A DNA stretch of 64,000 bases from Clostridia bacterium. Its GTDB lineage: Bacteria; Bacillota; Clostridia; UMGS1840. Under the pieces are notes generated by a model. The model was not told the DNA's origin. It did not search any database and worked only from the letters and a program-made list of their open reading frames with translations. The DNA is taken from the NCBI GenBank assembly GCA_017936745.1, contig JAGBEY010000016.1:192-64191 (forward strand), read 5' to 3'. The position numbers and the translations under genes are program-made. Of this stretch, positions 35,358 through 45,343 are shown piece by piece. Each line of letters opens with the position of its first letter. The first letter of the stretch is position 1.

Positions 35358-37646
35358 TCAGGATGCATTAAATCTTTCCTGATAGAAAATATCAGTCCAG
35401 CTTTCCTGGTTGTTTTCCACTTTGTGGTCATGCCAGTTACTTGCTTCTAAGATTTCGTAGTATGCCCAGTGAGATTCATCAATATCCGGGTAATCCAGAA
35501 CTTTTTCGTAGTTTGCTTCGATGTAAGCTTTATCTGCAGCACGGTTCAGCATTCTGTTAACAATGGTAACCGCTTCGCTACGTTTGATTGCCTGGTCGGG
35601 TTTAAAGGTGCCGTCTTCATAACCTTTCAGCCAGCCTTTAATAACCGCGGAATCAATATATTCTTTTGCCCAATGGCTGTCAGTTACATCAACAAAGGTG
35701 TTTTCTGCACCTTTTTCCAGTTCAAAGAATCTGGAAGCGATGGTTGCAAATTCTGCACGGGTAATCGGTGCATCGGGTTTGAAGGTACCATCTTCATAAC
35801 CGTTGATGATTTTCACGTTAGACAGATATTTGATATAGGGAGTATGCCAAGCACCTTCCACAACATCGGTAAACTGGCTTACGCTATCATCTTTGAATAC
35901 CATTTTCTTCACCAGTAATCTGGAGAACATTGCAGACACTTCGCCTCTGGTAACATTGTCATCCGCATCGAAGTTACCGGTATCTCTACCGTGAACGTAA
36001 GCGATATGTTCACCAGTTAAGGTGGGAGTCAAGCCTCCCTGCAGGTCAATTTTATCGGTGGTAACATAACTGTCGATATATCCGTTCTTCACTGCGAATG
36101 CTTTGATGGTTGTGCCGTCTTCCACCTGGAAAGGACCTTCGTATTTCTGAGATTTTTTAGTGGGAGCAGTACCGTCGGTGGTGTAGTAAATGGTTGCGCC
36201 ATTGGTAGCAGTTTCTAAAGTAACGGTAATGTTTTTGTCACCGTCAACTTCAAAAGTGATGGTAGGTGCTTCTACACGGGAAATTGCTCCACCACCGGTG
36301 GAGGGAGGTGTAGTCTGAACAGTCAGGTTTAATTCCATAAACAGTTCTTTATCATTGTGACGGGTAGGATCATTAAATAAGAATGCGCTATTGGTGTCTC
36401 TGTATAATTTTAAGATACCGCTACCTGCAGCAGAACCGGTTACTTTCAGTAAGCCGGACTGTCTGTCAACAGTTGCATAAGTCAAAAGATTGTCATCGGC
36501 ATCAACCAGCGCAGCATCCAGACTTGCAGATAAGCTGGGATTGAAAGTTGCCAATCCGCCGAGAGATTCTTCGCCGCTTCCATGTTCAAACAGTTTTGCA
36601 AACTCATTGGAAACAACTTTTAAGTACACGGTGCTGCCAACATTCAAGGTAGCCACCAGATTGTTAGGCTCTACGGTTGCGATTTTCTGAGTAGCTGCTG
36701 CATCTGCATATACTTCAACTACTGCATCCATTACGCCGGACATAACAGTGTTCATTACAACTGCTGCTACATCGGCATCAAAATTTTTCAATTCATTAAT
36801 TGCATGAACTAACAGTTTGATAAAGTGAGAGTTTTCCTTATCGACATTAGATAAATCTAAAACCAGCATTCCGTTTGCAGGATTGAGCATTGCAGTTTTC
36901 GCTGCGAAAAGCTGGTCTCCCACTGTTGCAGAATCGTCAAATGCCTTCGCTGCTGCATTTTTTACATAAGGAATAATTGCATCCACATAAGCAGCTGCCC
37001 CGCCCGTTACATAAGCAGTTAAGAAGCTTCCAATGTTGGCTGCAGCCTCTGCTCTTAAGTTTTTCTGGAAATCAATGACAAATGCGCCTAATGCATTTTT
37101 GGTCATATTGTAGCCGGTGGCTTTGTTCAGAACATCAGCGGGGTTTGCTGTGGTTGAACCAACAGTCACATCGGTGTAAAATGCAGCAACCGCTCTGTCG
37201 ATATCATCGTTGATAGTTGTTGCATCGTTAGACACATAGTAATTGCTGTCAAATGCAATTTCATTCACGCTGGTTTTAACTTTTCCGTTTTCAACCTGAC
37301 CGGATTTTGCATCAGGGAAAGTCATCAGTTTGATGAAACCATATGCCAGAATTACTTCTTCATCATCGGTCATTGCAGGAACGGCAGAAGGCATAGGAGA
37401 CACATCACCAGCATCAAACCCTGTTGTTCCGTTATAGAACGATCTTAATGCATCCAACTGGTCCTGAGAAATATTTCTGTAGGCTCTGATTAAGCCTGCT
37501 CCGTAGTGGTTTACACTCGAAGTGGTTTGTTCCCCTAACAGGACTTCTTGAAATTCTTGTTCTGTCATAGTTGTGGCAGCCTGAGATACCACAGTGAAAA
37601 TGGGTAACATCATGATTGCCAAAAGCAAAGCAATGATTTTTTTCAT
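35358..37646 (-). CDS. Large SLH-domain surface protein (three C-terminal SLH repeats)
   Basis: Signal peptide MKKIIALLLAIMMLPIFTVVSQA. C-terminal repeats FTDVVEGAWHTPYIKYL..., FVDVTDSHWAKEYIDSA... and YPDIDESHWAYYEILEA... Confidence 0.8.
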   Translation of the reverse strand: MKKIIALLLAIMMLPIFTVVSQAATTMTEQEFQEVLLGEQTTSSVNHYGAGLIRAYRNISQDQLDALRSFYNGTTGFDAGDVSPMPSAVPAMTDDEEVILAYGFIKLMTFPDAKSGQVENGKVKTSVNEIAFDSNYYVSNDATTINDDIDRAVAAFYTDVTVGSTTANPADVLNKATGYNMTKNALGAFVIDFQKNLRAEAAANIGSFLTAYVTGGAAAYVDAIIPYVKNAAAKAFDDSATVGDQLFAAKTAMLNPANGMLVLDLSNVDKENSHFIKLLVHAINELKNFDADVAAVVMNTVMSGVMDAVVEVYADAAATQKIATVEPNNLVATLNVGSTVYLKVVSNEFAKLFEHGSGEESLGGLATFNPSLSASLDAALVDADDNLLTYATVDRQSGLLKVTGSAAGSGILKLYRDTNSAFLFNDPTRHNDKELFMELNLTVQTTPPSTGGGAISRVEAPTITFEVDGDKNITVTLETATNGATIYYTTDGTAPTKKSQKYEGPFQVEDGTTIKAFAVKNGYIDSYVTTDKIDLQGGLTPTLTGEHIAYVHGRDTGNFDADDNVTRGEVSAMFSRLLVKKMVFKDDSVSQFTDVVEGAWHTPYIKYLSNVKIINGYEDGTFKPDAPITRAEFATIASRFFELEKGAENTFVDVTDSHWAKEYIDSAVIKGWLKGYEDGTFKPDQAIKRSEAVTIVNRMLNRAADKAYIEANYEKVLDYPDIDESHWAYYEILEASNWHDHKVENNQESWTDIFYQERFNAS

Positions 37647-37672
37647 AGTTTTTTGCTCCTTTTTATTTAAAA

Positions 37673-38707
37673 TTATTTATTAACATATTGATAACAATTG
37701 TATAGCATTTGTGCAGCCTCTGCCCTGGTAGCGGTCATTGTGGGGTTGAAACAATTCAACTCGTTTCCGTTAATGATGCCCAGCTCTTTTAAGGTGACTA
37801 CCGCAGTTTTTGCATAGGATGCAATGTAACGGTCATCCTCAAAGCCGGAGGTTCTTAAGCTGCTTTGGTCCATTACCCCCAGCATCTCGCCAATCCGGAA
37901 CATCAGAACCGCCATATCCTGACGGGTAATATTCCGACCGGAGCCGAACATTCCGTCTCCGATTCCCAAAATCAGCTTTCTGCTTGCCATTGTGGTAACA
38001 TAAGGATAGAACCAATCAGTTTCTCTCACGTCGGAAAAAACAGGCTTTTCAGCCGAAGCTTCAATATTGAATGCAACACACATCATTTTTGCAAATTGTT
38101 CCCGGGTTACATTGGCAGCCGGCATAAAGGAAAAGTCGCTGACTCCGTTTAAAATATCTTTATCAAACAAATAGGCAATCGCTTTTTCTGCCCAGAGGTG
38201 ATGTTCCAAATCGTCAAACACATGAGTGGGTTCCCTATCTTTTCCAAAGCCTAAAATGATATATGCTTCACTGGCAATGGCATTGTAAAGGGGTTCAAAC
38301 TCCAGAGGAATGTTACCATCCAAAAGCGATGCAACCGTTTCTTCGGAAAAGGCATCGGTACAAAGTGCGATATAAACCGCCTCCATGGAAGCCGCCGTGT
38401 TAATGGTAATTGTTTTCAACCTGCTTTTTAAATTAGACTCGATTAACGAGCCATTTGCTTTTTCTGCTTCCGCAATGGTCAGCACGGTGTGAATGGTTTC
38501 TTTAAACTTTGCATTCACCGATGCATTGGTAACACCGAGTTCTTCATACAAAGGAACTGCACTGTAAAGCTGAGGTAAAAAGGCAGGGTCCTCACATACT
38601 TTTTTGAACACCCGAACAGTATCCGCATTGGAAATAGCAGCTGCAGTGGCAGTGAATAATGAAAGCACCAGCAAAAGCACCGGGATACATTTTTTCAACA
38701 ACCTCAT
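37673..38707 (-). CDS. SLH-domain surface protein
   Basis: A signal peptide. C-terminal SLH repeats (FDDLEHHLWAEKAIAYLFDKDILNG..., FSDVRETDWFYPYVTTM..., FEDDRYIASYAKTAVVTL...). Confidence 0.8.
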   Translation of the reverse strand: MRLLKKCIPVLLLVLSLFTATAAAISNADTVRVFKKVCEDPAFLPQLYSAVPLYEELGVTNASVNAKFKETIHTVLTIAEAEKANGSLIESNLKSRLKTITINTAASMEAVYIALCTDAFSEETVASLLDGNIPLEFEPLYNAIASEAYIILGFGKDREPTHVFDDLEHHLWAEKAIAYLFDKDILNGVSDFSFMPAANVTREQFAKMMCVAFNIEASAEKPVFSDVRETDWFYPYVTTMASRKLILGIGDGMFGSGRNITRQDMAVLMFRIGEMLGVMDQSSLRTSGFEDDRYIASYAKTAVVTLKELGIINGNELNCFNPTMTATRAEAAQMLYNCYQYVNK

Positions 38708-38870: not shown

Positions 38871-39128
38871 TTATTTTATTTTTTTGTGAATTTCTTCCAT
38901 TTCCACTAAAATGATATCGTCTCCGATTTTTTTAATTTGGTCAAAAGAAATCACCAGTTCCTCATATTTCCAGAACAGACGAAAAAACCGGTTTTGCCCC
39001 GGAACAATGACAGAAATCACTTTTCCCTGCTCCAAATCAACCTCCACGTCATACACAAAGCCGAGCCGTCTGCCGTTGACTAAATTGATCACTTCTTTTT
39101 TCTGTAATTCTCCCACACGTTCTGTCAT
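38871..39128 (-). CDS. YlmC/YmxH family sporulation protein (PRC barrel)
   Basis: 85 aa, with LQKKEVINLVNGRRLGFVYDVEVDLEQGKVISVIVPG. Confidence 0.88.
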   Translation of the reverse strand: MTERVGELQKKEVINLVNGRRLGFVYDVEVDLEQGKVISVIVPGQNRFFRLFWKYEELVISFDQIKKIGDDIILVEMEEIHKKIK

Positions 39129-40704: not shown

Positions 40705-41397
40705 TCAAGAAACCCCTTGCACTCCTGCAACAATTGCTCCAACCAATGCATCCTGATAGGATTCATCCATCAATTTTTTTGCATCCTCCTCGTTAGACAA
40801 AAAGCCACATTCTACCAGCACTCCCGGTACTTCCAATTTCCGGAAAGTCAAATTTGGATTGGGCAAGGGCTTTTGCACCCGATGATTCTCCGTATCCAAT
40901 TTTCTTAGCTCCGACATAATGCTTTTTGCATATTGCTCTCCTATCTTATCTGAGGACTTATAAAACACTTGCCCTCCCTTTACTTCGGGACTTTCAAATT
41001 TATTCATATGAATACTGAGAAACAGCCCTGCATTTTGATGATTGGCAACAGCAGCACGATTTTTCAGGTCGGAATTTTTTTGTTCCCGTACTGTTTGTTT
41101 ATCCTCGTCGTGTAAAGAAACATCCTCTGTTCTGGTCATAACCACCTGATATCCCTTTGCAACCAATGCCTGCTCCAGCTTTTTGGCAACTGCTAAATTC
41201 AAATCTTTTTCCAATGTCTGCAGCACTCCCACGCCTCCGCCGTCCATTCCTCCGTGACCTGCATCCACAACAATCAGCTTTGCATTTAATTCCACGGGTT
41301 GAGAAGCAAAATTGAGAAACGCACTCATAAGCGTCACACTCATTGCAACTCCGGAAAGCAGCATGATAAGAACCTTGCGGCGAAACACCATAAACAT
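40705..41397 (-). CDS. cwlD: N-acetylmuramoyl-L-alanine amidase, CwlD type (germination-specific)
   Basis: N-terminal TM helix. Motifs VVDAGHGGMDGGGVG, EKDLNLAVAKKL, MTRTED and SIHMNKF. ATG 41397 follows AAGGTGG. Confidence 0.85.
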   Translation of the reverse strand: MFMVFRRKVLIMLLSGVAMSVTLMSAFLNFASQPVELNAKLIVVDAGHGGMDGGGVGVLQTLEKDLNLAVAKKLEQALVAKGYQVVMTRTEDVSLHDEDKQTVREQKNSDLKNRAAVANHQNAGLFLSIHMNKFESPEVKGGQVFYKSSDKIGEQYAKSIMSELRKLDTENHRVQKPLPNPNLTFRKLEVPGVLVECGFLSNEEDAKKLMDESYQDALVGAIVAGVQGVS

Positions 41398-41462
41398 AAA
41401 AATCCCACCTTTTTTCTTGATAATACAATATATCAAGCAGGTGGGATTTCTATTCCATTTTC

Positions 41463-42092
41463 TCAAAGCTTACGGCAAACCTGAATTTCTTTGTTCACCA
41501 ATGGCTCAAATTCGTCTGCATCCTCCGGTTTCCCCACTAAGGTTCCGTAGTGAGTGGGAATCACTGCTTTGGGCTTCAGTCCGTTGACAAGCTCTGCTGC
41601 CTCAGAAGCATTCATAGTATAGGTTCCGCCGATGGGAAGCAGTGCAATATCACATAGGACTGCTCTTGCTTCCTCTGTAACATCTGTATCGCCTGCCACA
41701 TAAACGGTTGTGCCGTTCACGTTCACCACATAACCCAGCCATCCGTTTTCTTTGGGATGCATAGGCTTATTGGTATTGTATGACGGGACTGCCTGCACCG
41801 GATATCCAAAAACAGATGTGATATCATTTGGACTAAGCCACAGTACACGGCTTTTAGACTTAAGAAGCTTTTCTTCCTCCCCTTTCATACTTTGGGGCAT
41901 TACAAAAAGCGTGGTTTCTTTTTGCAATTTCACAATATCCTCCGGGGAAAAGTGGTCGTAGTGTGCATGTGTGATAAAAATAATATCCGCATCGTGCGTT
42001 TCGTTTGTAATGCGGTAGGGGTCAAAATAAATGATATGATTTCCGTCAATGCGAATGCTGCTATGTTCGTTTATGGTAATATTTGAAAGCAT
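41463..42092 (-). CDS. MBL-fold metallo-hydrolase
   Basis: ITHAHYDHF (HxHxDH) motif. 209 aa. It starts 3 nt after the stop of the upstream GTPase-NYN gene. Confidence 0.8.
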   Translation of the reverse strand: MLSNITINEHSSIRIDGNHIIYFDPYRITNETHDADIIFITHAHYDHFSPEDIVKLQKETTLFVMPQSMKGEEEKLLKSKSRVLWLSPNDITSVFGYPVQAVPSYNTNKPMHPKENGWLGYVVNVNGTTVYVAGDTDVTEEARAVLCDIALLPIGGTYTMNASEAAELVNGLKPKAVIPTHYGTLVGKPEDADEFEPLVNKEIQVCRKL

Positions 42093-42094
42093 CG

Positions 42095-44665
42095 CTATTC
42101 TCCTTTCGGGATGTTTTCCAGTAAATCACGGATGCTTTGTTCTGCTTCTTCCACTTCCTTCAAAAAATGTTCTGCAGATATCCTCAGTGCCCCGTGCCCT
42201 AATATAATAAGCTGTTCTAAATTGTCCGAAGTTGCTACCCGTACCCGGTGATGCTTGCCAAGCTGCTTGGTCACTTTTTCAATATACATATCAGCCGTTT
42301 CTGCCTCTTTGGTATACACCACGCTGATATTATGAACTTTTTCCACCTCACCGGGATTATTTTTCACCTTATAGGCATCAAACACCAGTATCAATTCACA
42401 TTGAGAAAAGCCCTGATAATTGCACAACCGGTCAATGAGATGCTCTCTGGCAATGGCAGGACTTTCTGCCACCAGCTTTTTCAAATCCTCCCAGGCAAAA
42501 ATGATGTTGTAACCGTCTACCAAAAGATATTCAGGGCCTTCGGGAATGGGCTTCGCCGGTTTTGGTTTATACTCTTTTTCCACCTTTTTTGCACGGGGAC
42601 GAAATGCATCATACTCCCGACGGCGGATAGGCCCGTAGGTTCTCTCAAATACTGCCAGCAATTCTTCATCGTCATACACACGTTCCAGGTATCGTCTGGC
42701 TTGTTGGACAGGTTTTTTTGGTATTTCTTCTTTGGAAAAAGCACTCTCCAAGTGCATATATTTGGGAACATCGTTCCACTTAACCGTAAAGCCTGCTCCG
42801 TGAGAACAAAAAACAGAATCAGGCGTATTATCCAAATCCTGCTCAGGCTGATAGCCCATCTCAGCAATGACACTTTCCGCTTCCTCACAGGGAGAATATC
42901 CCGCTACCCGACAGCTTAACCGCCCCAGCCCGTGGGTATATCGAACAACCTCCATCTGATAGTCCCGCATTTTGGATACGGGAGCAGTTCCCGTAAGCAC
43001 CGTATTTTCTCCCTGCATTCCTTTTTGTTCAAAGGTGCCTCCCATCTGCCCGATGTCGGTCATCGCTCTGCCCACGGCATCTGAGGGAAGCTCCAACTCA
43101 AACTCATACCAAGGCTCTAACAGCTGACTTTTTGCACACATCAACCCCTGACGAACGGCACGATAGGTTGCCTGGCGGAAGTCACCGCCCTCTGTATGCT
43201 TTATGTGTGCTTTCCCTGCAATCAGAGAAATTTTTATATCAGTGATAGGTGAACCGGTCAACACACCAAGATGATTTTTTTCCGCTAAATGGGTTAAAAT
43301 CAGCCGTTGCCAGTTTTTATCCAGCTTGTCCTCAGGAAGGTTGGTGGTATACACCATCCCGCTTCCTTGGGGCAGAGGCTCTAACAACAAATGTACCTCG
43401 GCATAATGGCGCAAGGGTTCATAATGCCCTACCCCTTCTACCGCCTCCAAAATGGTTTCCTTGTAGGAGATACTGCCGTGACTGAAAGAAATTTCCATCC
43501 CAAAGCGCTCTTTGGCAATTCGTTTTAAAACCTCCAGCTGCACTTCCCCCATCAGCTGAACATGAATCTCTTTTAGTTGTTCATTCCAATATAAATGCAG
43601 ACACGGATCTTCCGCTTCCAGCTGACGAAGCTTTCCCAAAGCAACCGAAACGTCGGTGCTGTCACAAAGCTCCACCTTATAATTCAAAACCGGCTCAGTA
43701 TACAATTCTGTGCCGTCTGGCTCTACACCGAAGCCGTCCCCCACCCGGGAATTGGAAAGACCGGTAACGGCACAGACGGTTCCGGCATACACTTCCTCTG
43801 CTGTTTCGTAGCCTGCACCGGAATAAATCCGAATCTGATTGATTTTTTCACTCCATACTTCCGTCTCGTTCCTGATTTTTCGAAGCAAGGATTTCACTTT
43901 CAGGCTACCACCCGTAATTTTCAGGTAGGTCAGGCGGTTGCCCTGCTCATCCTCCGCAATTTTAAATGCTTTTGCACCAAATTTCTGCAAACGCTCCGGT
44001 TCTTTTGCATAGGTTAAGATTCCATTCACCAATGTATCAATTCCCACAGTTTTTAATGCAGAACCAAAAAAGCAAGGATATAGCTTTCTTTTTTTGATTG
44101 CCCGGGAAATACTTGGTTCGCAAACCGAACCATTTTCCAAATATTCCTCCATCAAGCTTTCGTCACAAAGTGCAATTTCTTCCATATCGGGAGACGCGGA
44201 AAAATCCACACAGGAAGTATCCAGTTTTTCTTTCAGCTGTTGCAATACTGTTTCTTTATCCGCACCCTCCAAATCCATTTTATTCACAAACAAAAAGGTG
44301 GGAATGTTGTACTGATGAAGTAGTTTCCACAAGGTGATTGTATGGCTTTGCACTCCGTCTGTCCCGCTGATGACCAAAATTGCGTAATCCAGCACACTGA
44401 GTGTTCGCTCCATTTCAGTGGAAAAATCAACATGACCGGGCGTGTCCAGCAAGGTGATAATCGTGTCGTCATATTTTAAGATGGCTTGCTTGGAAAAAAT
44501 GGTAATACCACGATCTTTTTCGATAGAATGGGTATCCAAAAAAGCGTCTTTATGGTCAACACGCCCCAATTTCCGGATTTGCCCCGCATGATATAACAGC
44601 CCCTCGGATAAGGTGGTTTTTCCCGAATCCACATGAGCTAAAATGCCAAATACCAATCTTTGCAT
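42095..44665 (-). CDS. TetM/EF-G-family translational GTPase fused to a C-terminal YacP/Rae1-like NYN nuclease domain
   Basis: G motifs AHVDSGKT, DTPGH and NKMD, with collinearity to TetM/TetO over about 640 aa. A K/R/E-rich linker follows. The last 145 aa (42098-42532) read EYLLVDGYNIIF...LVFDAYKV...VVYTKEAETADMYIE...VATSDNLEQLIILGHGA, which are the YacP NYN hallmarks. Confidence 0.8.
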   Translation of the reverse strand: MQRLVFGILAHVDSGKTTLSEGLLYHAGQIRKLGRVDHKDAFLDTHSIEKDRGITIFSKQAILKYDDTIITLLDTPGHVDFSTEMERTLSVLDYAILVISGTDGVQSHTITLWKLLHQYNIPTFLFVNKMDLEGADKETVLQQLKEKLDTSCVDFSASPDMEEIALCDESLMEEYLENGSVCEPSISRAIKKRKLYPCFFGSALKTVGIDTLVNGILTYAKEPERLQKFGAKAFKIAEDEQGNRLTYLKITGGSLKVKSLLRKIRNETEVWSEKINQIRIYSGAGYETAEEVYAGTVCAVTGLSNSRVGDGFGVEPDGTELYTEPVLNYKVELCDSTDVSVALGKLRQLEAEDPCLHLYWNEQLKEIHVQLMGEVQLEVLKRIAKERFGMEISFSHGSISYKETILEAVEGVGHYEPLRHYAEVHLLLEPLPQGSGMVYTTNLPEDKLDKNWQRLILTHLAEKNHLGVLTGSPITDIKISLIAGKAHIKHTEGGDFRQATYRAVRQGLMCAKSQLLEPWYEFELELPSDAVGRAMTDIGQMGGTFEQKGMQGENTVLTGTAPVSKMRDYQMEVVRYTHGLGRLSCRVAGYSPCEEAESVIAEMGYQPEQDLDNTPDSVFCSHGAGFTVKWNDVPKYMHLESAFSKEEIPKKPVQQARRYLERVYDDEELLAVFERTYGPIRRREYDAFRPRAKKVEKEYKPKPAKPIPEGPEYLLVDGYNIIFAWEDLKKLVAESPAIAREHLIDRLCNYQGFSQCELILVFDAYKVKNNPGEVEKVHNISVVYTKEAETADMYIEKVTKQLGKHHRVRVATSDNLEQLIILGHGALRISAEHFLKEVEEAEQSIRDLLENIPKGE

Positions 44666-44726
44666 TTTTCAATCTCCATCTTATTTCTTGTTTGTTATTA
44701 TACTAAAAAACAGTGGTTCTGTCAAT

Positions 44727-44769
44727 AAAAAAAGAATGGAAACCGATATTCGGCTTTCCATTCTTTTTG
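44727..44769 (-). terminator. Terminator after the 44777-45343 gene
   Basis: agaatggaaa / tttccattct outer stem with an inner ccga-tat-tcgg. On the minus strand a T7 run follows it. Confidence 0.75.
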
Positions 44770-44776
44770 TTTTCGC

Positions 44777-45343
44777 TCAGGATACTTTTACACAATAAAC
44801 AACTGTTCCCTGTGGGTATTCCACCGTAATTTCCAAAATATGCTCCTTTCCGTTGCTCTCAGGAACACAAACCGAAGAATCCGTATAGGGAATGTGAGTT
44901 TTCATCATATCGTAAGGATCTAAACGAAACCATCTTGTCCTTACGATTTTTCCATATGTATTATCTATAAAATACTCCTGATAAACCGCTTCAGTCTCTC
45001 CGGTTTTCAAAACATTTTCCTCTGCATACTCTCTGTTATTATGAGAAGGGTAATCTGACATCATAGTCTGATTACCATAGCTCCAGTCATTGGTACTGGT
45101 AAGGCAGGTAGCCTGTACGATTCCCTCTTTGTCTTTCAGACCAAGAACCGGTGGTTCCGTCAAGCTTTGCGATACCCCTTCCGGTTCTTCGGAAATAACC
45201 GGCGGAGCATACGGATATCCCCAGGTAGAAAAGATAACCGGTTTATTTTCATGCATCCGATATCTGTCAATGCCAAACATTCCACCCGTTACCACCAGAC
45301 AAAGCATCACAATGACTCCCAAAACAAATATTCTTTTTTTCAT
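44777..45343 (-). CDS. Hypothetical membrane-anchored extracytoplasmic protein
   Basis: N-terminal TM helix or signal anchor MKKRIFVLGVIVMLCLVVTGGMF. No motif recognised. Confidence 0.5.
   Translation of the reverse strand: MKKRIFVLGVIVMLCLVVTGGMFGIDRYRMHENKPVIFSTWGYPYAPPVISEEPEGVSQSLTEPPVLGLKDKEGIVQATCLTSTNDWSYGNQTMMSDYPSHNNREYAEENVLKTGETEAVYQEYFIDNTYGKIVRTRWFRLDPYDMMKTHIPYTDSSVCVPESNGKEHILEITVEYPQGTVVYCVKVS

Follow-up and report, generated by a model that had tools for sequence, protein, structure and literature searches.

Why would a ribosome-binding GTPase carry a ribonuclease at its C-terminus? The question is raised by a stretch of 64,000 nucleotides (nt) from Clostridia bacterium (contig JAGBEY010000016.1, hereafter the window), whose reverse strand carries a gene that joins two such modules in one reading frame. 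Its product consists of a five-domain EF-G-like GTPase body, a small C-terminal mini-domain, a basic tether and a Rae1/YacP-type NYN endoribonuclease domain. This fusion is a genuine, conserved single polypeptide in which both catalytic modules are predicted to be intact, and it is real, ancient and widespread. We propose that it is a ribosome quality-control factor in which a docked GTPase would hold a tethered Rae1-type nuclease that cleaves messenger RNA (mRNA) for ribosome rescue; the probability of this reading is put at roughly one half (0.48). A first-pass annotation of the window had suggested GTPase-mediated delivery of an mRNA nuclease to ribosomes, and this remains the best hypothesis.

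There is no internal stop across the 856 codons of the open reading frame (ORF), and both sets of Pfam profiles match the same polypeptide: GTP_EFTU at residues 4–221 (6.2e-51), EF-G_D2 at 232–313, EFG_III at 324–394, EFG_IV at 397–511, EFG_C at 514–595 and NYN_YacP (PF05991) at 714–850 (E = 1.9e-48, 165 bits against a gathering cut-off of 24.6). The uninterrupted two-module frame read by the first-pass annotation, and the profile matches that it expected from a hidden Markov model scan, are thus both borne out. The features of the gene are as follows; domain boundaries II to V follow Pfam and the AlphaFold2 model.

42095–44665, reverse strand: fusion gene, complete; single ATG-initiated ORF of 856 amino acids (aa) and a TAG stop
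44003–44665, reverse strand: G domain (residues 1–221), with P-loop AHVDSGKT (10–17), switch-I T55, DTPGH (74–78, including the catalytic histidine H78), NKMD (128–131) and SAL (202–204)
43727–43978, reverse strand: domain II (residues 230–313)
43484–43696, reverse strand: domain III (residues 324–394)
43133–43477, reverse strand: domain IV (residues 397–511), the part expected to reach the A site
43394–43438, reverse strand: clade-specific loop-1 motif of domain IV, GVGHYEPLRHYAEVH (residues 410–424), from the alignment
43142–43216, reverse strand: clade-specific loop-3 motif of domain IV, G..H.KHTEGGDFRQAT.RAVRQGL (residues 484–508)
42881–43126, reverse strand: domain V (residues 514–595)
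42746–42880, reverse strand: clade-specific C-terminal mini-domain (residues 596–640), a helix, a β-hairpin (SVFCSHGAGFTVKW) and a helix
42533–42745, reverse strand: flexible basic tether (residues 641–711)
42629–42673, reverse strand: conserved tether element DDEELLAVFERTYGP (residues 665–679), family pattern [LIVMF][FYW]ER[TS]Y
42098–42532, reverse strand: Rae1/YacP-type NYN endoribonuclease domain (residues 712–856), with D717, D763, D792 and D814

The same architecture, PF05991 included, is shared by all of the best 120 database matches (842–907 aa, 61–99% identity), and the 99% identical protein comes from independent assemblies. In a scan of one genome per species, the frame runs uninterrupted from domain IV to the NYN domain in 80 of the 80 best loci, the set on which the neighbour and synteny counts given below are also based. 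The architecture is found in cultured isolates (Ruminococcus flavefaciens ND2009, Intestinimonas butyriciproducens An565) and in closed records (Monoglobus, A. rectalis). The frameshift or missed stop of which the first-pass annotation was wary is excluded by these comparative data, namely the near-identical protein and the 80 contiguous loci.

Conservation of the two active sites was measured in an alignment of 73 full-length members, down to 41% identity with the query. In the GTPase, V12, D13, G15, K16 and T17 of the P-loop, switch-I T55, DTPGH (74–78), K129/D131 and SAL are invariant or nearly so; in the nuclease, the same holds for D717-G718-Y719-N720, F762-D763-A764, T790-A791-D792 and S813-D814. 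This points to selection that preserves both GTP hydrolysis and nuclease chemistry. The motifs quoted earlier from the sequence (AHVDSGKT, DTPGH and NKMD; LVDGYN with D717, VFDA with D763, ETAD with D792 and TSD with D814) are all present and conserved in relatives 41–55% identical to the query. An AlphaFold2 model built from the 73-member alignment has a mean predicted local distance difference test score (pLDDT) of 89.1 and a predicted template modelling score of 0.70. From N- to C-terminus it displays an EF-G-like five-domain body, the mini-domain, a low-confidence segment and a well-folded NYN domain (residues 712–851). Foldseek matches the model to EF-G/EF-2 over 680–750 columns, and residues 4–593 align to the structures of TetO and TetM (1e-73 and 2e-72), with EF-G nearly as good (7e-70).

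The nuclease domain is similar to Rae1 (YacP) of Bacillus subtilis: residues 713–849 align to its structures (PDB 5MQ8/5MQ9) at 6e-27 and 47% identity. The two share the NYN_YacP fold, 47% identity over 119–137 aa and all acidic catalytic motifs, but unlike Rae1, which stands alone as a 170-aa protein with its gene beside rlmB and sigH, the NYN domain of the fusion is the C-terminus that follows a 711-aa N-terminal region, and it is encoded at a locus unrelated to rlmB–yacP–sigH. Fused NYN domains are 44–47% identical to B. subtilis Rae1, which makes them as close to it as true standalone orthologs (S. aureus 46%, Latilactobacillus (Lcur) 48%, C. difficile 41%), a point in favour of Rae1-like action. 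Fused and standalone NYN domains are 36% identical to each other, the same as standalone domains among themselves (36%). The query domain covers positions 1–139 of the 166-position profile; 42 aa follow D814, compared with about 66 in the full Rae1 tail with its E.IRRG motif, and the last ~27 aa of that tail are missing in the sub-lineage of the query. Fusion does not in general entail loss of this basic tail: among diverse fusions, 28 of 68 still have a long tail and 8 of 71 the motif E.IR[RL]G.

As was shown only recently, in 2025–2026, Rae1 is an mRNA endonuclease whose action depends on translation; it works on ribosomes that have stalled or collided and passes them to transfer-messenger RNA (tmRNA) (PMC12407103, PMC13622287). 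Collision-induced tmRNA tagging, in a pathway named CART, requires it, and its cuts lie at the tail of stalled ribosomes, 12 nt upstream of the A-site codon (PMC12407103, PMC13622287). The model of A-site docking and cleavage, on which the first-pass annotation relied, has thereby been superseded, having been replaced and withdrawn by the group that proposed it (PMC12407103, PMC13622287).

The nuclease could instead be directed at ribosomal RNA (rRNA), for instance close to the decoding centre or the factor-binding site, or at transfer RNA (tRNA), the GTPase docking it to inactivate, recycle or mature ribosomes in starvation or stationary phase. Early genomic-context work proposed rRNA/tRNA processing for YacP from its operon with mrnC and rlmB, the tether would give access to rRNA elements around the factor site, and the substrate is not fixed by sequence alone. 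But Rae1, the only characterised member, cleaves mRNA in a way that depends on translation, the fused NYN domain stands as near to it as its orthologs do, and the promoter of the fusion gene matches the constitutive sigma-70 consensus and is not of a stress type. We regard an rRNA- or tRNA-directed nuclease as unlikely.

In 12 records from Bacilli and Peptostreptococcales, standalone rae1 adjoins rlmB (Bacillus, Listeria, Paenibacillus, Staphylococcus, Latilactobacillus, Aerococcus, C. difficile and Acetoanaerobium). No NYN match lies in the rlmB loci of Monoglobus pectinilyticus, Vescimonas fastidiosa and Subdoligranulum variabile, and in the Monoglobus records nothing but the fusion matches NYN; these genome records are incomplete, being chromosome fragments in a plasmid collection. 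In V. fastidiosa, rlmB is followed by a 718-aa hypothetical protein. The 64-kb window, too, holds no second NYN domain and no rlmB–sigH locus. The fusion thus probably replaces standalone Rae1 in these lineages of Clostridia. At the Monoglobus rlmB locus (L096, 4750–5529), a TIGR00282 metallophosphoesterase followed by pgeF occupies the place where Bacilli have yacP; we take TIGR00282 to be the family of B. subtilis YmdB.

The GTPase body resembles both the tetracycline ribosomal protection proteins (RPPs) and EF-G, but belongs to neither. Similar to the RPPs TetM, TetO, TetS and TetB(P), it is a five-domain EF-G-like GTPase, collinear with them over residues 4–593, and RPPs provide its best sequence matches in both the PDB and NCBIfam. 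However, its identity to TetM/O/S/B(P) is only 29–32% (29–33% when RPPs are taken as a group), with the match confined to residues 1–590, and its best NCBIfam match, tet_protect (NF012153), scores 435 bits, under the cut-off of 775; the scores of relatives are 374 bits for an unfused ortholog (described below) and 389 bits for the A. rectalis fusion. The EF-G equivalog TIGR00484 gives 304.6 bits, under its cut-off of 659.4, and other EF-G models also failed. The fusion has the domain order, GTPase motifs and overall fold of EF-G, and its His487 aligns with the conserved domain-IV histidine in SYHDVDSS; unlike EF-G, to which it is 27% identical, it lacks the loop-1 sequence GGRGQYG, differs in the SYHDVDSS loop and carries extra C-terminal modules.

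The tip of domain IV also sets the fusion apart. In TetM–70S structures, the tip proline of loop III displaces tetracycline. Loop 1 reads GVGHYEPLRHYAEVH in the fusion, YTIHIEVPPNPFWAS in RPPs and KQSGGRGQYGHV in EF-G. Loop 3 of the fusion (G..H.KHTEGGDFRQAT.RAVRQGL) stands where TetM has its tetracycline-displacing YYSPVSTPADFR and EF-G has SYHDVDSS: the query carries AHIKHTEGGDFR at the position of YYSPVSTPADFR in TetM/TetO, so that the YSPVS/Pro509 segment of TetM is replaced by HIKHT. All four reference RPPs have [YF][YF]SP[VA]STPADFR in this loop; the query does not. Further C-terminally, RPPs end in a short helix, compared with the mini-domain, tether and nuclease of the fusion.

In a neighbour-joining tree of the GTPase body (586 columns, 100 bootstrap replicates), fused proteins and a set of unfused ones form one clade (96/100), this clade groups with the RPPs to the exclusion of EF-G (100/100), and the RPPs are monophyletic without the query in 100/100 replicates. 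Mean identities are 43% among fused proteins, 45% between fused and unfused, 30% between fused and RPPs and 27% between fused and EF-G. We define this sister clade of the RPPs by loop 1 GxGH[FY]EPLRHYAEV, loop 3 H[TS]xGGDFR[QE]A..RA.RQGL and the mini-domain sequence SVFCxHGAGxxVxW. All three features occur in the query, in the 73 aligned fusions and in the unfused proteins, and are absent from RPPs and EF-G. The domain-IV tip is the most conserved clade-specific feature, which would imply a specific contact with the decoding centre. The description of the GTPase as TetM/TetO-like in the first-pass annotation therefore gives way to a separate sister clade, on the tet_protect score and the absent YSPVS, whereas its view that this is not a plain tetracycline-resistance gene agrees with the score, loop III and the phylogeny alike. 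One divergent fusion, P0164 (848 aa), branches at the base of the clade without the domain-IV motifs (loop 1 ENGAFVQIH, loop 3 HRKCTP-YHLYEA) and with a degenerate mini-domain, yet it has kept its NYN domain; it may be an early or degenerating form.

These comparisons bear on the suggestion, made when the architecture was first noted, that it represents a novel resistance mechanism involving RNase activity (Atkinson 2015, PMC4342817), that is, protection of the ribosome from tetracycline or another A-site drug with the nuclease assisting. The clade is indeed the sister group of the RPPs, tet_protect is its best NCBIfam match, and NCBI often labels members TetM/TetW/TetO/TetS. However, the low score, the low identity and the replaced loop-III segment all speak against it. 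Unlike tet(M), which has an annotated leader, the fusion gene has no leader peptide. It is chromosomal and not mobile: plasmid-collection records with the fusion are only large, non-mobilizable ones, a single edge fragment was found in 2.9 million viral contigs, and the pattern across at least 592 species looks chromosomal and vertical. Moreover, Ligilactobacillus salivarius can hold a real tet(M) in addition to an unfused paralog of the clade. Drug protection is therefore an improbable function for the fusion. The labels are an observation in their own right: many fused and unfused members are called 'TetM/TetW/TetO/TetS family' or 'TetM from transposon Tn916' despite RPP scores far below the cut-off.

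The region between the GTPase body and the nuclease had been described as a linker of roughly 70 aa. A low-confidence tether of about that length exists (pLDDT below 50 at residues 647–658 and 677–701), but it is preceded by a folded mini-domain of 45 aa (residues 596–640, pLDDT above 90), which is present in fused and unfused members of the clade and absent from RPPs and EF-G. The tether contains one long helix in the AlphaFold2 model and is rich in E, K, R and P, with a median net charge of +5 in the 35 residues before the NYN domain. Its length is constrained: the distance from the hairpin motif to the start of the NYN domain has a median of 81 aa (interquartile range 80–84, range 66–147, n = 161), and among diverse representatives the median is 84 aa. 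Of 71 diverse fusions, 38 have the tether element, a fixed ~42 aa ahead of the NYN domain; none of 116 unfused proteins has it. Such constraint on length, together with the conserved element, suggests that the tether has a defined reach, or else makes a contact that serves docking or autoinhibition. The tether motif EELLAVFERTYGP was also considered as a relocated Rae1 tail motif (SEEVLKTFEKWRRG), but the resemblance is superficial and both motifs coexist in five proteins.

The unfused members of the clade are found in Lactobacillaceae. A translated search of plasmid records (tblastn) yielded WP_164920261.1, a 644-aa protein of the L. salivarius megaplasmid pMP118, which is 51% identical to the fusion over residues 1–640, ends seven residues past the alignment, and carries both domain-IV motifs (GVGHFEPLRHY[AS]EV and HTxGGDFRQA..RAVRQGL) and the C-terminal mini-domain. 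Proteins of this kind (640–660 aa), encoded on chromosomes, are widespread in Lactobacillaceae (Companilactobacillus, Levilactobacillus, Paucilactobacillus, Pediococcus, Lactiplantibacillus, Limosilactobacillus), with inconsistent annotations as EF-G, GTP-binding protein, TetM family or 'translation factor GTPase family protein'. Unlike the fusion, they end 13–27 aa after the mini-domain and have no tether, IFERTY element or NYN domain. Since a genuine tet(M) can be present on a small plasmid in L. salivarius strains that have the unfused gene, the two are distinct paralogs. In the tree, the unfused proteins form a monophyletic group (100/100) that in no case lies outside the diversity of the fused ones, a position compatible with secondary loss of the nuclease, although the divergent basal fusion P0164 weakens that inference.

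No recurrent neighbour of the unfused genes was found; their contexts are variable, with HflX, an RsgA-like gene or rpsN nearby. The pMP118 gene (L081, NC_007930.1 226083–228474) is divergent from an extra copy of rpsN, encoding ribosomal protein S14, and a tiny 'putative metal homeostasis protein', and other unfused members lie near an HflX-type GTPase (L083) or an RsgA-like GTPase (L084). Such ribosome-related neighbours recur loosely, and no single one is conserved.

The fused family is large. With the fusion-specific C-terminal 261 aa as the query and a threshold of E ≤ 1e-30, 473 cluster representatives (50% identity) were obtained, and the best 150 of these 473 are nearly all fusions of 830–1156 aa or fragments of fusions. 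Longer variants keep the architecture and differ by insertions in the G domain or by longer tethers. The genome scan found relatives in at least 592 species genomes. The 80 best loci span Oscillospirales and neighbouring orders, and members from metagenome-assembled genomes (MAGs) are labelled Faecalibacterium, Oscillibacter, Dysosmobacter, Lawsonibacter, Anaerotruncus, Monoglobus and Acutalibacteraceae. Further fusions occur in Agathobacter rectalis (Lachnospiraceae, 933 aa), Monoglobus pectinilyticus and one Anaerovoracaceae MAG. The gene is broadly conserved, at about one copy per locus.

The first-pass annotation knew of no functional description of this architecture, and full-text literature searches indeed found no functional study of the fusion and no mention of it in the recent Rae1 papers. 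The architecture itself is not new, having been recorded in two surveys, neither of which put its function to the test. Besides Atkinson 2015 (PMC4342817), Matelska 2017 noted TetM–NYN_YacP fusions in some Clostridia and called their role unclear (PMC5499597). New here are the scale of the family, a distinct GTPase clade that has unfused orthologs and is defined by features of domain IV and of the mini-domain, a tether of constrained length, the absence of partner genes and the purely local character of a cwlD link (both described below), and an initial sign that the fusion stands in for standalone Rae1.

How might such a protein work? The closest characterised relatives of the clade are factor-site GTPases with domain IV in the A-site region, and the features most conserved within the clade and private to it are the tip loops of that domain; from this we infer docking in the manner of EF-G and TetM. 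The product of this free-standing chromosomal gene with its vegetative-type promoter would dock its five-domain body in the ribosomal factor-binding site; recruitment to the ribosome is presumably through the GTPase. The clade-specific tip of domain IV, in or near the A site, would read a feature of the decoding centre of a stalled ribosome, which might be a vacant A site, by analogy with RPPs, or a collided, rotated ribosome, as in EF-G binding. The basic, length-constrained tether of ~80 aa would hold an active Rae1-type endonuclease, which would cut mRNA on or beside the docked stalled or collided ribosome. The truncated message would then be resolved by trans-translation through tmRNA, and the factor would be freed by hydrolysis of GTP. 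The role that standalone Rae1 has in Bacilli would be filled by the fusion in these Clostridia. Within this scheme, the target of the nuclease, mRNA, has the best support and the recognised ribosome state the least.

Several points weigh against the proposed ribosome quality-control role. The family is known from sequences and predicted structure, and sequence alone fixes neither the substrate of the nuclease (mRNA, rRNA or tRNA) nor the recognised ribosome state. The AlphaFold2 model does not reliably position the NYN domain against the body, the tether being of low confidence, and a tether of 80 aa could reach most of the 30S surface, so that the modelled geometry does not identify a cleavage site. 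The unfused orthologs show that the GTPase has a function of its own, for which no nuclease need be covalently attached, and the evidence that standalone Rae1 has been replaced comes from three genome records, all incomplete.

The proposed role has functional analogues, although no homology is claimed. SmrB of E. coli and Cue2/NONU-1 of eukaryotes are collision-triggered mRNA endonucleases, but their nuclease has the SMR fold, unrelated to NYN. Hbs1–Dom34 and Ski7 belong to the GTPase family and link mRNA decay to stalled ribosomes, a translational-GTPase-like protein serving to deliver decay or rescue activities there. None of these systems has its nuclease and GTPase in one covalent fusion.

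The transcription signals and neighbours of the fusion gene in the window are as follows.

44730–44756, reverse strand: strong intrinsic terminator hairpin at the end of the upstream gene (GAATGGAAA...TTTCCATTC, then a T run)
44697–44725, reverse strand: perfect sigma-70 consensus promoter, TTGACA-17-TATAAT (12/12 matches)
44674–44677, reverse strand: GGAG ribosome-binding site, 8 nt upstream of the ATG, in a 5′ untranslated region of ~25 nt
41463–42092, reverse strand: metallo-β-lactamase (MBL)-fold hydrolase, starting 2 nt after the fusion stop, with an AGGAG ribosome-binding site inside the last codons of the fusion
40705–41466, reverse strand: CwlD-like amidase, overlapping the MBL stop codon (TIGR02883, 200 bits against a cut-off of 221.55)

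The predicted upstream terminator appears to isolate the transcription unit of the fusion gene. No leader peptide or attenuator was found in the ~25-nt 5′ untranslated region and Rfam gave no match, so a regulatory RNA or leader was rejected. Downstream, the 2-nt gap, the ribosome-binding site inside fusion codons and the overlap of the MBL and CwlD-like genes make co-transcription of the three plausible here. The first-pass annotation was right about the immediate MBL neighbour, apart from giving the gap as 3 nt, and its cwlD is a CwlD-like amidase that scores just under the family cut-off. The link that it drew from these genes to sporulation is not supported. The order MBL, cwlD, MATE, YlmC/YmxH, SLH protein and glnA recurs only in the closest relative (L001, 74% identity), cwlD alone recurs once more (L058), and the arrangement is absent from the other 78 of the 80 best loci. 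The family occurs in genera generally described as non-spore-forming, and its unfused form in Lactobacillaceae. All-against-all clustering found no flanking-ORF cluster in more than 6 of the 80 loci, and this lack of a conserved neighbour suggests that the fusion protein is self-sufficient. A horizontal-transfer island was also rejected: the GC content and third-position GC content are unremarkable and the two halves of the gene are alike. The fusion thus behaves as a self-sufficient, chromosomal housekeeping-type gene, and does not look like a member of a sporulation operon, a mobile resistance gene, a toxin–antitoxin module or a defence system.

The toxin–antitoxin comparison deserves a closer look. 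Ribosome-dependent mRNases are common as toxins, and a GTP- or ribosome-triggered mRNase that halts translation on phage infection or stress could act as a toxin or abortive-infection effector. In A. rectalis (NZ_CP143948.1; L082, 4310–4818), a BrnT toxin/CopG antitoxin pair lies immediately upstream of, and divergent from, the fusion gene, but it is not seen beside other members and the adjacency is probably coincidental. PADLOC gave no match, no antitoxin or immunity gene is a conserved neighbour in the 80 loci, neither defence islands nor phages are associated with the gene, the promoter is strong and constitutive, the GC content is not anomalous, and conservation is broad at about one copy per locus. 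An effector of this kind is very improbable. As for an assembly or annotation artefact, by which two neighbouring genes were wrongly joined or a pseudogene is decaying, it was only ever an a priori possibility for metagenome-derived sequence and is already refuted by the comparative data, the same uninterrupted frame being found in 120 of 120 matches and 80 of 80 loci, cultured isolates and closed records among them, and both active sites being conserved. The probability left beyond the proposed role and these alternatives is kept for functions that were not considered.

Other observations concern the surroundings of the gene. The ORF directly upstream (44777–45343, reverse strand, 188 aa) has an N-terminal hydrophobic segment, ends in the terminator before the fusion promoter and is matched by nothing in Pfam, NCBIfam or PADLOC. 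The closest genome, L001, which is an uncultured 'Clostridia bacterium' MAG, lacks this ORF, and there glnA directly flanks the fusion. Further downstream lie a YlmC/YmxH-family sporulation protein (38871–39128, reverse strand, 86 bits against a cut-off of 44) and two SLH-domain proteins of 762 and 344 aa (35358–38707, reverse strand), the larger of which also has chitobiase/Fn3-associated domains, while the smaller (37673–38707) is syntenic in L001. The YlmC/YmxH protein and the CwlD-like amidase suggest that the source organism is an endospore-former. Several PLSDB 'plasmids' are evidently chromosomes or chromosome fragments (NZ_OY725736/OY725739 of Monoglobus; NZ_OY725757 of Parabacteroides, with rpsG–fusA–rpsJ; NZ_OL790696 of E. 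coli, 4.8 Mb). Since such records carry core ribosomal genes, inferences on mobility from that collection need care.

The fusion has consequences for annotation as well as for biology. Among its hosts are genera that dominate the gut of humans and ruminants (Faecalibacterium, Ruminococcus, Oscillibacter, Intestinimonas and Agathobacter), and members labelled as TetM-type proteins fail every RPP-specific test applied here. Members called resistance determinants likely inflate resistome counts in gut metagenomes, and the labels are a likely source of false positives in such surveys. On the biological side, the fusion is a natural experiment in which a Rae1-type nuclease is permanently tied to a factor-site GTPase in hundreds of species. 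It offers a concrete, testable model for GTPase-gated mRNA cleavage on bacterial ribosomes, and makes the GTPase clade, unfused Lactobacillaceae members included, a candidate partner of Rae1. More tentatively, and with considerable doubt, the whole clade might be a dedicated sensor of stalled or collided ribosomes with Rae1 as its effector, acting in cis in Clostridia, where the fusion would replace standalone Rae1, and possibly in trans in Lactobacillaceae. The functional analogues of such a sensor in eukaryotes would be the GTPases of the Hbs1/Ski7 type, which link mRNA decay to stalled ribosomes. If this is true, the fusion would be a Rosetta stone that identifies the factor and the mechanism by which Rae1 is recruited to ribosomes.

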